The notes under the pieces were generated by a model. The model was not told where the DNA came from. It was given only the letters and a program-made list of their open reading frames with translations, and ran no database searches. The translations under genes were made by a program, and so were the position numbers. A stretch of DNA of 64,000 bases, taken from sequence record OR699282.2, one strand, 5' to 3'. This stretch comes from Escherichia phage BAU.Micro_ELP-22. Positions 18,498-49,392 of this stretch are shown piece after piece. Each line of letters starts with the position of its first letter. Position 1 is the first letter of the stretch.

Positions 18498-18854
18498 ATG
18501 AAATCTAAAATCTTTTTACCACAATTAATGTGGCATCTAGCAGAGTTAGATGAAAATGATGAATATACGGACTATGGTGCATGGGATGACAGTACTGAAA
18601 CTTTTAAACCAGATGTAAAATATAAAATCATCTGCAATGAAAGCAAAGGACACAAAAGGTGGACTGAAGAATTTGATCTCGTATTTCTTGACATGAGCAC
18701 AAATAAGTTTTATCATTGTAATTATGAACGAGGTTTAACAGAAGATAGACCAGTACAACCATTCAGTACTGAAACTGATGGTATTAAGTGCAATGAAGTT
18801 TCTGTTACCAGAGAAGAAATTATCACTTATCGAACTTTGTGGAAATATTTGTAA
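18498..18854 (+). CDS. hypothetical protein (118 aa)
   Basis: ORF with GGAG RBS-like sequence; no motif. Confidence 0.45.
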   Translation: MKSKIFLPQLMWHLAELDENDEYTDYGAWDDSTETFKPDVKYKIICNESKGHKRWTEEFDLVFLDMSTNKFYHCNYERGLTEDRPVQPFSTETDGIKCNEVSVTREEIITYRTLWKYL

Positions 18855-44416: not shown

Positions 44417-45397
44417 ATGGCTAAAAAAATTAATGAAGCACAAGTTAAAATCGATATCGCAGGTTTAGAATCTGATGATTTGGAAACTCTATCACGTATG
44501 TTAGCTCTTGCTGGTCAAGCTGAACGTCAAGACCCAGTAGTTGCTGCTCCAGTACCATCTATGGGGTCTATGACTCCATCTCTTCCACCTATTGCTCCAC
44601 TAGATCTCGATTCTATTGGTGCTGAAGAAGAAATTGGTGGAATTGAAACTTCAGTTGAAGACCCACTAGCAGCGGCAGTTGATGATCTTTCCGCTGATGT
44701 TGGTGATTTTGGTGCTGACACAGATGAAGTTAGTATGGATGCTGAATTTTCAGAACCAGGTGTAGAAGGTGAAGAAGATTTTTCTCTTGACCTTAGTGGT
44801 CAACCTCAACTAGAATCAGTTGAAGAAGACGATGAGGAAGAAGAGGAAATTATTGAAGAAGAATTCGATTTTAGTCGTATGCTATCCCTTGCTGGTATTA
44901 ACGAAGAAGAAGACGAAGATTTTTCCGTAGAGGGTAATCCTGCTACCGATAAAGAAATGAAAGATACCCAATTTCTACCAGATCTAAGTATCTCTGAAGA
45001 TGAAGAACCATCTAACAGTACTGATTATGGTCCATATGAAACAGAAGCTGATGCCGTTCGTGATGGTCAACTAAAGACTAATGGTGTTGAAGGTGACCAT
45101 TTTGTTGTAATTGCAAAAGGCAATCAATTTTATTGGAGACGTGTTGTAGATGAAGATCTTGACAATCGTCCAGAACCTGAGTATTATGATAATGAAGGGA
45201 ACGAAAATCGTGTTCATAAATTTGAACCAAAATTCCCAGGCACTGCATTAGGAGATAACCCACTAAATGTTAATGAAAGTGAAGAAGATGATTCACCTGA
45301 AGGTAACATTGACTTGGAAGATGATTCTGATGAAGAAGTAGAAGATATTTTTGAAAGTCTCCAAGAAAAATACAAGAAATTTTTAGGAGACAAATAA
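44417..45397 (+). CDS. highly acidic protein (326 aa) with internal repeat
   Basis: Asp/Glu runs (EEDDEEEEEIIEEEFDF) and a repeated LSRMLALAGQAERQD / FSRMLSLAGINEEED motif. Confidence 0.5.
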   Translation: MAKKINEAQVKIDIAGLESDDLETLSRMLALAGQAERQDPVVAAPVPSMGSMTPSLPPIAPLDLDSIGAEEEIGGIETSVEDPLAAAVDDLSADVGDFGADTDEVSMDAEFSEPGVEGEEDFSLDLSGQPQLESVEEDDEEEEEIIEEEFDFSRMLSLAGINEEEDEDFSVEGNPATDKEMKDTQFLPDLSISEDEEPSNSTDYGPYETEADAVRDGQLKTNGVEGDHFVVIAKGNQFYWRRVVDEDLDNRPEPEYYDNEGNENRVHKFEPKFPGTALGDNPLNVNESEEDDSPEGNIDLEDDSDEEVEDIFESLQEKYKKFLGDK

Positions 45398-45797: not shown

Positions 45798-46178
45798 ATG
45801 TTTCCAGAACCATCACATAACAGTACTGAATATCAAAATAATGTACTTTCCAAAGTTAGGGAAGTACATGAATCAGATTCAGAAATAACAGACCGTATGC
45901 TTCTGATGTCAATTTTTGAAAATTTCAGAACTGGCGGTGGTTTACGTCTTAGCAAGTTTGGGTATGGAATTTGTAAAGAAAATAATCTTTATGAATTTAC
46001 AAAAATCCCCTTGCAAAGAGAATTTAAAAGTTCTATAATGTTTACATCACTTGACAGAATATGTACTTCACCTTATTATGTTGAAGGTCAGTACATATAT
46101 CTGACAGATGCAATGATAATAACTGAATTAACATTGTGTTGTGATGATTTTAAACAGTTATTTTCTATTCATATGTAA
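45798..46178 (+). CDS. hypothetical protein (126 aa)
   Basis: ORF; no motif. Confidence 0.4.
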   Translation: MFPEPSHNSTEYQNNVLSKVREVHESDSEITDRMLLMSIFENFRTGGGLRLSKFGYGICKENNLYEFTKIPLQREFKSSIMFTSLDRICTSPYYVEGQYIYLTDAMIITELTLCCDDFKQLFSIHM

Positions 46179-46201
46179 GAAAAATGAATTAAAAATAAAT
46201 G

Positions 46202-46229
46202 TTGACAAGATAGAATGATGTGATACAAT
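46202..46229 (+). promoter_or_regulatory. consensus sigma70-type promoter P1 (TTGACA-16-TGaTACAAT)
   Basis: Exact -35, 16-nt spacer, TACAAT with upstream TG. Confidence 0.55.
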
Positions 46230-46295
46230 AAGCATCAGACATAAAGTTTTCAAGCGACACAAGATGTGAGTTTGAAAAAAAAAGAAAAAAAGTGA

Positions 46296-46323
46296 TTGAC
46301 AAGTTGAAACGATGTGATATAAT
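46296..46323 (+). promoter_or_regulatory. consensus sigma70-type promoter P2 (TTGACA-16-TGaTATAAT)
   Basis: Near-duplicate of P1 (TTGACAAG...GATGTGATATAAT) 94 nt downstream. Confidence 0.55.
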
Positions 46324-46492
46324 GTTCACATCAAGACAGCAAAGAGATTTACCTTTTAAACACACGGATGATTCATGAAGTAACAAAGGAACTGATAAGT
46401 TAAATTATTTTAACACAGTTCCTTTACTTTTGCCCACGGATTGGCTATAATAGAAACTTAAACGATTTTATCCAACAAAAGGAAATATATAC

Positions 46493-47818
46493 ATGACTAC
46501 TCAAAACGATATCCTGAACGTTAAACTGACTCCAAAGAAAGCTAAAGAAGCAATGGCACTAGCTGACATGATTCAAGATAGCCTGATGATTTGGGGTAGC
46601 CCAGGTATCGGTAAGTCTGCAATCGCTCGTCAATACGCTGATGAAAATTACCCACTGCGTAAAGATAACGTAGCTAAAATCGAGTTCATGAAACAACAAA
46701 TCGAAGCTGACCCTGAAAATGCTGATCAGCTACGTCGTGAACTGGCTGCATTTGAAGCAAAACTAATCGACCAAGATACTAACTTTATCGATTTCCGTTT
46801 GTCTCAAATCGAACCAAGTGACCTTCGCGGTATTCCAGTACCAGAGAAGCTTTTCCGTAAAACTGACGGTTCTCTTCTGAAAGAATCTGAGCTTGCCGAA
46901 GCAAAAGATTATGTAGCTGAAACTGCGGTAGTATGGGCTGCACCTAAAGTTCTGAAATTGTCCGAAGATTGGAAAGGTGTTATTCTGTTTGACGAAATTA
47001 ACTCTGCAATGCCTATTGTTCAGGCAGCGTCTTATCAGCTAATCCTCGACCGTTGTGTTGGTGAGATGAAGCTACCTAAGACTGCACTGATTCTTGCAGC
47101 AGGTAACCGTGAAACTGATGGCGGTGTAACTTTCTCTCTTGCTACACCACTGCGTGACCGTATGACTCACATTGAGATGATTCCTTATCATCAAGATTGG
47201 ATTAACGATTATGCGATTGCAAAACGTTTGAACCCAGCAACTGTTGCGTTCATCAACAACACTGGTTCTAAGTACTTTAACACACTTAGTCCACAAGATC
47301 CTTCTCACAGTGGTGGTACTTCTCCACGTTCATGGGAAGCAGTAGCACGCTACGAAGATCTCAAGAAAACTAAGACAATTGATAAAGAAGTGTTCCGTGC
47401 AATGATTGCTGGTCGTGTTGGTGAAGGTGTTGCAACTGAATACATTGAGTACGTTGAGAACGTTGCTAAACTACCAGATACTATGTCTATTCTGTCTGGT
47501 GAAATCAAAGAAATCGACGCAACGCTGGATATTTCTGCGAACTACTTTATCACTCTGAACTTGGTTTATAAAATTATCGACCTGTTCAATGAGAAGCAAG
47601 AACAACGTCTACCAGTGGAAGAATGGGGTAAACTGTGTAACAACTTCATCACCTTCCTAGACCATAACTTCTCTGCAACTCAAGCAGAACTGGCAGTACT
47701 GGCAATTCGTACCATCACGCTTCATAAGGTTGCGATTTCCATTAAAGATGTACCAGCGTTTAAAGATTTCATCGCTAAGTACTCTGATCTTGTACGTAAA
47801 GCACGCTCTCTTGGCTAA
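46493..47818 (+). CDS. AAA+ ATPase, MoxR/CobS-like (441 aa)
   Basis: Walker A MIWGSPGIGKSAIARQY and Walker B VILFDEINSA; codon choice (ctg, cgt, ggt, atc, ttc, aaa) differs visibly from neighbours. Confidence 0.7.
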   Translation: MTTQNDILNVKLTPKKAKEAMALADMIQDSLMIWGSPGIGKSAIARQYADENYPLRKDNVAKIEFMKQQIEADPENADQLRRELAAFEAKLIDQDTNFIDFRLSQIEPSDLRGIPVPEKLFRKTDGSLLKESELAEAKDYVAETAVVWAAPKVLKLSEDWKGVILFDEINSAMPIVQAASYQLILDRCVGEMKLPKTALILAAGNRETDGGVTFSLATPLRDRMTHIEMIPYHQDWINDYAIAKRLNPATVAFINNTGSKYFNTLSPQDPSHSGGTSPRSWEAVARYEDLKKTKTIDKEVFRAMIAGRVGEGVATEYIEYVENVAKLPDTMSILSGEIKEIDATLDISANYFITLNLVYKIIDLFNEKQEQRLPVEEWGKLCNNFITFLDHNFSATQAELAVLAIRTITLHKVAISIKDVPAFKDFIAKYSDLVRKARSLG

Positions 47819-47839
47819 TTAACAAAGAGTTGTTGACAA

Positions 47840-47868
47840 GAAGGATGCCTAATGGTATCCTTCTTTTA
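47840..47868 (+). terminator. intrinsic terminator (gaaggatgcc-taat-ggtatccttc + T-run)
   Basis: 10-bp stem with one G-U pair plus TTTTATC. Confidence 0.5.
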
Positions 47869-47892
47869 TCTTAACTAAACGAGGAAATATAC

Positions 47893-49317
47893 ATGTCAGA
47901 TAACAAATCTACTTCAAGATTCAATGAAGTATCTCCGGCACTCCAGAAAGAATGTCAAGAACGTCTGGTTCTGGCTCGTACATCTTTGATGTTAACTGCA
48001 CCATTCTTTGGTGTACTCGCTTCACGTTTACGTCCAGTTCCTAATAATACATGGTGTCGTACTCTAGCAGTGGATGGTAAACATCTATTCTACAACGTAG
48101 AATTTGTAATGGGCATTCAAGACCCATCTAAAAAGAAAGAATATGAAGAAGCTATTCGTGAAAAGCACCCTGAAGTTACAGACGAACAATTAAAAGAAAT
48201 GACTGAAGGTTTGACTGATGAAAACCTTGTTGCTGTAATTTGTCATGAAATTCTACACTGTGCTTACGATCACTTCCTTCGTCGTGGTATGCGTGATCCG
48301 CAACGTTATAACCGTGCAGCGGATTATGCCATTAACCAAATCATCGTTCGTGAGAAAATTGGAAAAATCCAAAGTTCATGGTTGTATGATAAAAAATATG
48401 AAGGTATGACCGCAGAAGAGATTTACATTCTTCTTGAAGAAGAAGAACAAAAAGAAGATGGTGAAGGTGAAGGTCAACCACAAAGTGGTGGTGGCGAAGG
48501 TGAAGGTAAAAATCGCGGTACTTTTGGCGATATTAAAGATGGTAAGGGTAAACCAAAAGGTACTACCATTGACCAGCATGACGTTCCACAAGAAGGTCAA
48601 GAGGGTGGTTCAAGTGAACAGCAAAAACGTGATTACATGGATGATTTCAAAACAGCAATGATGAATGCTGCTCGTGCAGGTGGTACACCAGCAGAAATCG
48701 CTCGTATGATTAACAACTTTAAAGAACCAAAGATTGACTGGCGTTCAAAACTTCAACGTACACTTCGTAGTTGGTTGAAGTCTGATGCAACATATCAAAA
48801 TCCGAATCGTCGTTCTTGGGGTGCAGGTTTTGGTTCTAATGGTTCATTCTATGGTAATCCAATTTACCCAGGGATGAAACCAGATGATGATATTGATATT
48901 GCGATTGCACTAGATGCTTCTGGGTCTATTTCTGAAGATATGCTTCGTGATTTCATTAGTGAAGTTCTTGGCATCACTAAACAATTCAAACAGTTTAAGA
49001 TTCGTATCATGACTTTTGATACTGAAGTTTATACTGTAAAGGATTACAAAACTGGCGAAGAACGTAAGATTCTGGAATATCCAGTAAAAGGTGGTGGTGG
49101 TACTGACTTTGAAGCAGTATGGGTTCATATGAAGAACGACAACTACAAGCCTAAACAGCTTGTAATGTTTACTGATGGTGAACCGTGGCAGTCATGGGGT
49201 GATCCAAACTACTGTAAAACACTGTTCGTGATTCACAGTAACCCAAATAAAGTTGCACCATTTGGTGAGACTGTACACTACGAATATGAAGCTGATAAAA
49301 AGCGTCAACGTAGTTAA
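47893..49317 (+). CDS. vWA-domain protein with N-terminal HExxH putative metallopeptidase-like domain (DUF2201-type partner of MoxR ATPases)
   Basis: ICHEILHCAYDH (HExxH) in the N-terminal half, Gly/Glu-rich linker, then vWA MIDAS-like DIAIALDASGSIS and ...MFTDGEP. Confidence 0.6.
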   Translation: MSDNKSTSRFNEVSPALQKECQERLVLARTSLMLTAPFFGVLASRLRPVPNNTWCRTLAVDGKHLFYNVEFVMGIQDPSKKKEYEEAIREKHPEVTDEQLKEMTEGLTDENLVAVICHEILHCAYDHFLRRGMRDPQRYNRAADYAINQIIVREKIGKIQSSWLYDKKYEGMTAEEIYILLEEEEQKEDGEGEGQPQSGGGEGEGKNRGTFGDIKDGKGKPKGTTIDQHDVPQEGQEGGSSEQQKRDYMDDFKTAMMNAARAGGTPAEIARMINNFKEPKIDWRSKLQRTLRSWLKSDATYQNPNRRSWGAGFGSNGSFYGNPIYPGMKPDDDIDIAIALDASGSISEDMLRDFISEVLGITKQFKQFKIRIMTFDTEVYTVKDYKTGEERKILEYPVKGGGGTDFEAVWVHMKNDNYKPKQLVMFTDGEPWQSWGDPNYCKTLFVIHSNPNKVAPFGETVHYEYEADKKRQRS

Positions 49318-49330
49318 GTACTAAATAATG

Positions 49331-49358
49331 AGAACGGAATTTTCCGTTCTCTTCTTTT
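49331..49358 (+). terminator. intrinsic terminator (agaacgg-aatttt-ccgttct + T-rich)
   Basis: 7-bp perfect stem plus CTTCTTTTAT. Confidence 0.55.
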
Positions 49359-49364
49359 ATAAGT

Positions 49365-49392
49365 GGGACAACTTATAAAAATATGATATAAT
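49365..49392 (+). promoter_or_regulatory. promoter, gtGGGACA-n16-TGATATAAT class
   Basis: Same architecture as the sites at 19256 and 30352. Confidence 0.4.

Follow-up and report, generated by a model that had tools for sequence, protein, structure and literature searches.

Tandem near-consensus promoters, a structured leader and optimal codons at the MoxR-type ATPase gene of an Asteriusvirus jumbo coliphage

The ATPase locus and its relatives

We analysed 64,000 nucleotides (nt) of the genome of Escherichia phage BAU.Micro_ELP-22 (sequence record OR699282.2), a stretch referred to here as the window. Our subject is a gene for a MoxR-class AAA+ ATPase, which is preceded by two closely spaced promoters, P1 and P2, and a structured leader, and is followed by the gene of a VWA-like protein fused to a metallopeptidase domain (Table 1). 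Our analyses suggest that the locus is likely a native high-expression cassette, in which duplicated strong promoters, the leader and optimal codons serve the ATPase and its VWA/peptidase partner.

Positions 45800-48200 are 99.6-99.9% identical to the Asteriusvirus jumbo coliphages UB, JP4, PBECO4, 121Q and phAPEC6; genomes of the PBECO4/121Q group measure ~350 kb. The complete genome of ECO103 4-12-1 (OR844650.1), which is 99.8% identical, served as the proxy for all whole-genome counts. In the annotation of 121Q, virion structural genes (gp554-561) and a small hypothetical gene (gp562) lie 5' of the locus, gp563 is called 'ATPase' and gp564 is mislabelled 'HNH endonuclease', and a DprA-like gene and a thymidylate synthase gene lie 3' of the operon; no mobility genes flank the ATPase locus there. 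The position of the ATPase gene, flanked by the same small gene on its 5' side and the same VWA gene on its 3' side, is shared by Asteriusvirus, Alcyoneusvirus (RaK2, K64-1), Mimasvirus (CBB, GAP32), Eneladusvirus (BF), Munch, Hallingskeid and Yersinia phage fHe-Yen9-04 (Yen9-04). Nearly all loci that the ATPase alignment retrieved from IMG/VR were ~30% identical and of no use for leader comparison, the exception being that of Yen9-04.

Two near-ideal promoters arranged in tandem

The original prediction had placed two promoters 94 nt apart in front of the ATPase gene, with exact -35 hexamers, 16-nt spacers and extended -10 elements, and the coordinates bear this out. The -35 hexamer matches the consensus at 6/6 positions in both promoters, and the -10 hexamer at 6/6 in P2 and 5/6 in P1. 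Only the shared pattern, written with n8, required correction, to TTGACAAG-n7-GATGTGATA(C/T)AAT (8+7+13 = 28 = 6+16+6). Sites with at least 11/12 hexamer matches plus TG occur exactly twice in the window, against 0.52 ± 0.62 in first-order Markov simulations (64 kb, both strands), and both share one intergenic region and are oriented toward the ATPase gene. The two 28-nt cores are identical at 23 positions. Moreover, the P1 and P2 units align over ~90 nt, from the A-tract to about +40, with a score of 58 compared with 33.3 ± 5.3 for shuffles (maximum 53), and are therefore a tandem duplication. The tracts upstream of both promoters are 80-88% A+T and carry long A-tracts, against 66% A+T genome-wide; they may act as UP elements. 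The CBB paper reported that UP-like elements precede RpoD-like promoters in this phage group. P1 and P2 are conserved promoters of nearly ideal sigma-70 type, and would be expected to be both used and strong.

In relatives at 96, 92, 87, 84 and 81% identity, the hexamers of P1 and P2 are kept while the surrounding bases drift, and the P1 -10 is a perfect TATAAT in most of them. In SP27 (LC494302.1, 273267-273678), P2 and the opening ~45 nt of the leader have been duplicated once more (96 nt), giving three promoters in tandem in an intergenic region of 410 rather than 314 nt; near-identical phages thus differ in promoter copy number. RaK2 and K64-1, which infect Klebsiella, have a single TTGACA-16-TATAAT promoter with TG. 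In Munch, Hallingskeid, Serratia phage BF, Pectobacterium phage CBB, Cronobacter phage GAP32 and Yen9-04, the corresponding position is occupied by one extended -10 promoter, made up of TGTGATATAAT or TGGTATAAT with a weak -35 (TGAAAC or GGGACA, for example), and P2 is therefore the orthologue of an ancestral promoter. This promoter gained its consensus -35 and was copied later, which makes P1 and P2 an old tandem duplication.

The ATPase promoters of CBB, GAP32, BF and Yen9-04 belong to the class TGAAACG-N16-TATAAT, described as phage-specific by the CBB authors. The P2 spacer also contains TGAAACG, the only occurrence near a -10 in the genome, but we did not assign P2 to this class, as the CBB box sits at the -35 position; we treat the match as a relic or a coincidence. 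An inverted repeat over the P2 -10, GATGTGA-N8-TCACATC, was considered as a CRP site and rejected for its wrong spacing. Two promoter modules that occur repeatedly, TGTGATATAAT and the start-region ACATCAA, account for the repeat, which is seen again at another promoter.

The TGTGATATAAT core has 13 sites in the genome, of which 11 are intergenic and most lie 19-45 nt from a start codon; one, at ~34124, is directly 5' of a tRNA cluster. Another family comprises ~30 near-identical TTGACA-N9-AGTACTG-TATAAT-N5-ACATCAA promoters 5' of small genes, found at 301-322 kb and 2-40 kb, and several of the genes served have codon adaptation index (CAI) values among the genome's highest. The regions rich in these promoters presumably constitute the early region. 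Their spacer also measures 16 nt, and this length is thus normal for the phage. At ~18600-18770 of OR844650.1, on the minus strand, comparatively GC-rich DNA extends for at least 170 nt beyond a TGTGATATAAT promoter, and no open reading frame (ORF) of at least 100 amino acids (aa) occurs for 1.8 kb; this segment is a possible non-coding RNA.

Table 1. Coordinates of features at the ATPase locus, numbered in the window
Feature	Position	Strand	Details
UP-element-like A/T-rich tract 5' of P1	46179-46201	+	88% A+T over the 25 nt preceding the -35
Promoter P1 (predicted)	46202-46229	+	-35 TTGACA 46202-46207; -10 TACAAT 46224-46229; 11/12; spacer 16 nt ending TGA; TG at 46221-22; predicted start ~46236
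UP-element-like A-tract 5' of P2	46272-46295	+	GAAAAAAAAAGAAAAAAAGTGA; 80% A+T
Promoter P2 (predicted)	46296-46323	+	-35 TTGACA 46296-46301; -10 TATAAT 46318-46323; 12/12; spacer 16 nt ending TGA; TG at 46315-16; predicted start ~46330
Box 1	46362-46371	+	ACACGGAUGA; first invariant GGA 46367-69
Leader hairpin, intrinsic-terminator-like	46385-46431	+	arms AAAGGAACUG 46385-94 and CAGUUCCUUU 46416-25; U-tract UUUACUUUU
Candidate promoter P3	46423-46451	+	TTTACT-17-TATAAT, 10/12; overlaps U-tract and box 2; 35-nt leader
Box 2	46432-46445	+	small hairpin GCCC-ACGGAU-UGGC; GGA 46438-40 in loop
Shine-Dalgarno sequence AAGGAA	46479-46484	+	9 nt before ATG; third GGA, 43 nt after box 2 GGA
MoxR-class AAA+ ATPase, 441 aa	46493-47818	+	121Q gp563, phAPEC6 gp265c, 'N4 gp24-like'; PHROG 1297, E = 3e-107
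Intrinsic-terminator-like hairpin, ATPase/VWA spacer	47838-47865	+	12-bp stem, loop 4, UUUUAU
Partner, 474 aa	47893-49317	+	zincin-like metallopeptidase (HEILH) and VWA-like (MIDAS DASGS); 121Q gp564, 'N4 gp25-like'
Bidirectional terminator closing the two-gene operon	49330-49351	both	followed by the next promoter
Next promoter, after the operon terminator	49365-49392		GGGACA-16-TATAAT with TG

A structured leader precedes the ATPase gene

The leader from P2 to the ATG measures 169 nt and is long for this promoter class. Its order is common to all genera: a 5' AUYAAGACAG, NGGA(U/A), a GC hairpin followed by CUCUUUUG or UUUACUUUUG, a GGA hairpin, ~40 nt, and the Shine-Dalgarno (SD) sequence. 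Both the leader and the gene order are conserved across at least six genera.

The GC hairpin has a 10-bp basal stem (fold z = -3.3) and occurs in the compensatory forms GGAACUG/CAGUUCC, GGCACUG/CAGUGCC and AGCACUG/CAGUGCU, with two pairs changed on both sides across genera, 89% of cells paired and a loop that varies freely. The hairpins of BF and CBB pass the terminator scan, the version in the window fails solely on the loop-size limit of the scan tool, and the annotation of phage G17 places a terminator at this position. In box 2, the GGA is invariant in 11/11 sequences and three stem pairs covary (C-G / U-A / A-U). Its loop reads ANGGAN in A4, BF, CBB, Yen9-04, GAP32 and RaK2; the hairpin is clean in A4, RaK2, BF, CBB, Yen9-04 and EJP2, and has stem mismatches beside the loop in the window and in ph0011. 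Over both helices, none of 500 shuffles reached the observed covariation score and slid controls scored lower, in a sample of only 11 related sequences. Box 1, NGGA(U/A), precedes the hairpin by 5-15 nt in Asteriusvirus, RaK2, Munch, Hallingskeid, BF, CBB, GAP32 and Yen9-04, and is absent only in the rearranged EJP2. The initiation region of the VWA gene, GAGGAAATATACATG, is nearly identical to that of the ATPase gene.

The conserved stem and U-tract suggest that transcripts would be released at the U-tract, with termination probably partial. The region could also be read as a transcription unit of its own, in which P1 or P2 together with the hairpin and U-tract would yield an abundant small RNA of ~100 nt (~195 nt from P1), the ATPase being expressed mainly from P3. 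Such a unit would account for the conservation of a terminator-scoring hairpin and U-tract through compensatory changes, for the atypical length of the leader, since the 35-nt leader of P3 would fit the 19-45 nt norm of TGTGATATAAT promoters, and for the finding that the leader is more conserved than the adjoining coding DNA in relatives at 81-87% identity. Highly transcribed non-coding RNAs are also present in the related phage PA5oct. However, the P3 -10 is retained by every Asteriusvirus relative and, in the form TGGTATAAT, by Hallingskeid, but is absent in BF, CBB, GAP32 and Yen9-04, where no recognisable promoter lies between the hairpin and the ATG, so read-through must express the ATPase gene in these phages. 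EJP2 (OQ411014.1, 611-930) has a rearranged order, namely an extended -10 promoter, the terminator hairpin, a 12/12 TTGACAAG-type promoter, box 2 and the ATPase gene; here the strong promoter after the hairpin feeds the gene directly. The freedom of the hairpin loop to vary is that of a plain terminator. Moreover, the leader matched no Rfam family: tRNA and Rfam scans of the window, together with a permissive Rfam scan of 46180-46520, returned chance hairpin matches only, far under the gathering scores. Taken together, we consider a dedicated small RNA unit unlikely, and favour a leader that is read through into the ATPase gene.

The GGA motifs raise a different alternative, in which the leader is a post-transcriptional control element read by CsrA/RsmA, a global regulator of the host, that tunes the translation or stability of the ATPase mRNA, or titrates CsrA. 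The hosts of these phages are all Enterobacterales, which have CsrA/RsmA. The two invariant GGA motifs, one of them in an ANGGAN loop, and the GGA of the Asteriusvirus SD would be the sites bound by CsrA dimers. High-affinity CsrA sites present GGA in the loop of a short hairpin (ANGGAN), and a dimer bridges two sites separated by 10-63 nt (PMC7652899). Box 2, with its covarying stem of 3-5 bp and invariant loop GGA, resembles such a site, and its distance to the SD (43 nt) lies within the bridging range. Box 1, ACACGGAUGA, matches 9/12 positions of the SELEX-derived consensus RUACARGGAUGU. Invariance is confined to the GGA and does not extend to the UU after it, a pattern that suits CsrA more than the RNase E site RNWUU, and variable arms around a conserved non-palindromic centre favour an RNA loop over a DNA operator.

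These arguments are matters of sequence resemblance, and several observations oppose them. GGA hairpins are common by chance, at ~0.2 per kb, and are mostly SD sequences; when ANGGAN hairpins preceding genes were counted across the genome, SD sequences likewise dominated and the count was uninformative. The box 2 stem of the window and ph0011 is mismatched next to the loop. In BF, CBB, GAP32 and Yen9-04, the SD lacks GGA; the distance from box 1 to box 2 is ~45 nt in these phages and 71 nt here, the latter past the reported bridging range. Separately, a tblastn search with the E. coli CsrA sequence found no phage-encoded homologue. We regard control by CsrA as doubtful, and rate slightly lower still the more specific proposal that the leader RNA engages host CsrA/RsmA, thereby coupling the chaperone operon to host physiology or, as a plentiful short terminated RNA made at the two or three very strong promoters, soaking up CsrA in the course of infection. 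The leader, with its terminator hairpin and GGA hairpin, is nevertheless a candidate for an undescribed regulatory RNA.

The ATPase gene carries the codon signature of highly expressed phage genes

The codon choice of the ATPase gene had been noted to differ from that of its neighbours. We computed the CAI, with Sharp-Li E. coli weights, and the GC content at third codon positions (GC3) for each gene of the window, and the difference was confirmed: the ATPase ORF has a CAI of 0.46, against a mean of 0.258 (standard deviation 0.061; 65 ORFs of at least 100 aa), and the VWA partner gene reaches 0.42. Among 387 ORFs of at least 100 aa in the genome (mean 0.25), the ATPase gene ranks 2nd and its partner 11th; the putative major capsid gene, a 391-aa ORF, has a CAI of 0.43, below that of the ATPase gene. 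A principal component (PC) analysis of relative synonymous codon usage, which needs no external weights, agrees, placing the ATPase gene at rank 6/146 and the partner at rank 8/146 on a PC1 axis led by the 391-aa ORF and by an 887-aa ORF, which we take to be the capsid and tail sheath genes; both labels are putative.

In the ATPase gene, CTG accounts for 41% of Leu codons, CGT for 85% of Arg, GGT for 89% of Gly, ATC for 46% of Ile and TTC for 65% of Phe. The enriched codons are CTG, ATC, TTC, AAC, TAC and GAC together with the T-ending CGT, GGT, TCT and ACT, and AGA, AGG, CGA, CGG, ATA, GGA and GGG are not used at all. The shift is toward E. coli-optimal codons (Spearman rho 0.51, p = 3e-5): optimal codons gain +0.14 whether they end in GC or in AT, while the change for non-optimal codons is -0.02 (GC-ending) and -0.17 (AT-ending). 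This pattern is the phage's own high-expression signature, not foreign composition.

These results bear on the second suggestion of the original prediction, namely that the gene was recently acquired together with its own promoters. Horizontal transfer would explain an atypical composition, as GC (0.42) and GC3 (0.34) both exceed the window average, and homologues of the ATPase are found in 815 phage records from very different groups, including N4-like, rV5-like, cyanophage and jumbo phage genomes. However, optimal codons that end in AT take part in the shift and non-optimal ones that end in GC do not, the gene falls on the codon axis that also carries the capsid and sheath genes, and its promoter core, TGTGATATAAT, is the phage's own recurrent module. 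In addition, synteny and leader are shared by at least six genera, and the locus lacks flanking mobility genes. Given the native codon signature and the conserved synteny, recent acquisition can be rejected; we consider it highly improbable.

Among orthologues, CAI is highest in the E. coli phages whose promoters have a consensus -35 (0.46 here and 0.55 in EJP2, the top of all orthologues) and is 0.27-0.34 in CBB, GAP32, BF and Munch. Within these few genomes, this suggests that CAI tracks promoter strength across genera.

The MoxR-type ATPase and its VWA/metallopeptidase partner

Residues G35, G38, K41, S42, D167, E168, N205, R206, R223 and R279, which belong to the Walker A, Walker B and sensor/arginine motifs, are invariant or nearly so among 26 homologues. 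Of the Pfam families, only PF00004 reaches its cut-off (21.3 vs 21.2), AAA_3 scoring 16.7 vs 27; homologues at ~30% identity carry PF07726, PF07728 and PF20030 (the MoxR-type AAA_3, AAA_5 and bpMoxR), and the family profile matches midasin (E = 9e-14). An AlphaFold2 model with a predicted local distance difference test score (pLDDT) of 86 has NorQ (E = 6e-7, template modelling score on the target ~0.6) and CbbQ2 as its top Foldseek matches; NorQ and CbbQ are MoxR ATPases whose VWA partners are NorD and CbbO. Single-sequence searches of the PDB with the ATPase or the partner gave nothing useful. The earlier label 'MoxR/CobS-like' was thus right as to class, with NorQ and CbbQ as best structural matches; 'CobS-like' denotes a class resemblance only; the partner, unlike CobT, has a peptidase domain. 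In the Pfam AAA match, 128 profile positions are spread over residues 32-229, and a long insertion between Walker A and Walker B (residues ~50-150) is modelled as two long helices and a small beta unit.

The downstream neighbour is a VWA/MIDAS protein of the DUF2201 type with the motif DASGS, which matches DUF2201_N (2e-35, 123 bits; cut-off 23.2) and DUF2201 (7e-21, 75 bits; cut-off 26.4). The label 'HNH endonuclease' (RefSeq 121Q gp564 and GAP32_211; PHROG 1314) was discarded, because Pfam shows no HNH domain; it looks like a propagated misannotation. Iyer et al. 2021 (PMC7824862) described the same MoxR-vWA pair, with the metallopeptidase fused at the N-terminus of the VWA protein, in 'group 2.2' jumbo phages, and proposed roles in virion assembly and proteolytic processing. 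The pair is therefore already published, and the leader is the only undescribed element here. The ATPase presumably acts as a chaperone.

The structural proteome of phAPEC6 (PMC7247149) lists gp265c, the orthologue of the ATPase, as an 'ATPase' of 49.5 kDa detected in purified virions with 6 unique peptides and 19% coverage. Thymidylate synthase was detected in the same preparation, and gp264c, the orthologue of the partner, is absent from the list. Since thymidylate synthase is also present, the gp265c signal may reflect abundance in the lysate, not packaging.

The hairpin in the spacer between the two genes has equivalents in GAP32, in Yen9-04 and even in a PA5oct-like phage with an ATPase of only 26% identity. 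A third TTGACAAG lies at 47833, 5 nt before this hairpin, and overlaps its 5' side. With TG and TATCCT at 17 nt it scores 10/12 as a promoter, so the descending arm of the terminator may double as a weak -10 for the VWA gene.

Side observations upstream of P1

Four further plus-strand TTGACA/TATAAT pairs of at least 11/12 lie within coding sequence at 45159, 45604, 45715 and 46051, in the 1.1 kb before P1; this 1.2-kb stretch holds half of the window's 12 plus-strand pairs at that score. Of the four, the pair that was checked, at 46051 in the small gene 5' of P1 (45798-46178), is not shared by relatives. This gene also contains TTGCAA-17-TATAAT at 46011-46048, followed by GTTTACATC, which resembles the start region of this phage's early promoters (TATAAT AGTTTACATCAA). 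The segment TCTATAAT, in which the rare ATA codon is used, is unchanged in every relative, RaK2 among them. This element may be an internal promoter aimed at the ATPase operon. In the phAPEC6 record (MK817115.1, 4196-4894), ~700 nt 5' of the ATPase gene are without annotation, and the 126-aa ORF corresponding to 121Q gp562 (PHROG 15638, E = 5e-74) is missing from it.

Discussion

The features described above can be combined into the following scheme. An extended -10 promoter would have acquired a consensus -35 and an A-rich tract in the lineages that infect E. coli and Klebsiella, and would then have been duplicated in tandem, to two copies here and three in SP27. Given two near-ideal promoters, initiation is possible at either, and host RNA polymerase with sigma-70, or with the phage's RpoD-like sigma, would start at one or the other. 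The GC hairpin and U-tract of the leader probably stop part of the transcripts, and the mRNA that reads through would be translated efficiently owing to codons preferred by phage and host and the avoidance of rare ones. The conserved terminator after the ATPase gene would then lower transcription of the VWA/metallopeptidase gene. An attenuating terminator between the genes would thus allow the ring-forming ATPase to be made in excess over a single-copy adaptor. In this scheme we infer partial termination at both hairpins and, likewise, the ATPase:VWA ratio; the operon would belong to an early or middle temporal class.

Very high expression, the first reading offered by the original prediction, receives indirect support from the conserved near-ideal promoters, the host-optimal codons, the codon axis shared with the putative capsid and sheath genes and the detection of gp265c. 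The accompanying remark that this is unusual for a chaperone-type ATPase needs tempering: high expression is less odd for the hexamer-forming member of a pair proposed to act in virion assembly (PMC7824862).

Several points weigh against a high-expression cassette. The strong promoters are separated from the gene by a terminator-like hairpin, and the promoter in actual use might be P3. Escape can be slowed at promoters that join a full set of consensus elements to a 16-nt spacer. The CAI depends on external weights, though the weight-free analysis agrees, and its comparison with promoters covers ~8 genomes, with E. coli weights applied to hosts other than E. coli. Detection by mass spectrometry of virions is non-quantitative; moreover, CBB_216 is not flagged as structural in CBB, and the 121Q annotation notes no virion detection. 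The searched literature contained neither transcript or start-site data for Asteriusvirus nor a transcriptome of a RaK2-like enterobacterial phage.

The promoter arrangement has well-known counterparts. The A1/A2/A3 promoters of T7, the early promoters of T5 and the P1-P2 pairs of rrn operons consist of two or three close, near-consensus sigma-70 promoters with A/T-rich upstream tracts that fire in one direction, those of T7 and T5 being read by host RNA polymerase. P1 and P2 share the close spacing, near-consensus elements, A/T-rich tracts and common transcription unit. Unlike these systems, they are recognisable duplicates (a ~90-nt unit) of polymorphic copy number, they combine a consensus -35, an extended -10 and a 16-nt spacer, and what they feed, by way of a leader with a terminator in it, is one operon of two genes and not an entire early region. 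In T4, an early promoter and a terminator are followed by a delayed-early or middle gene with a downstream promoter of its own. The present locus similarly has a strong sigma-70 promoter, an intrinsic terminator to be read through and a second, candidate promoter, P3, just after it, but only a leader of ~100 nt, and no protein-coding gene, lies between promoter and terminator, and P3 is absent in several genera. We know of no middle system of the MotA/AsiA type for this phage.

The leader resembles the CsrA-regulated glgC leader in having a GGA in a short hairpin loop ~40 nt 5' of a GGA-containing SD; unlike those of glgC, its sites are candidates predicted from sequence, and half of the genera lack the site at the SD. 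The searched literature contained no example of a CsrA-type leader element in the mRNA of a lytic phage. As in NorQ/NorD, CbbQ/CbbO and CobS/CobT, a MoxR-class ATPase is encoded beside a MIDAS-containing VWA protein. Unlike the known MoxR pairs, the present ATPase has an insertion of ~70-100 residues between Walker A and Walker B and falls below the AAA_3 cut-off in Pfam. The expression signals of the phage pair have not been described previously.

To conclude, the kinds of elements found here are known and the protein pair has been published, making this an ordinary, well-documented case with one modestly novel RNA lead, the leader. Promoter strengthening, gain of promoter copies and codon optimisation occur together in the lineage that infects E. 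coli, which makes the locus a clean natural example of expression tuning, and P1 and P2 are candidates for compact, very strong E. coli promoters with a defined series of variants in relatives. Few phage gene pairs without an assigned role are as widespread as the MoxR-VWA pair. By its expression signals the ATPase belongs to the class of capsid and sheath, which speaks for a role that is stoichiometric or in bulk, such as the assembly or remodelling of many substrates, possibly with virion association, and against one as a trace catalyst; the signals also predict that the ATPase would accumulate in excess over its partner.

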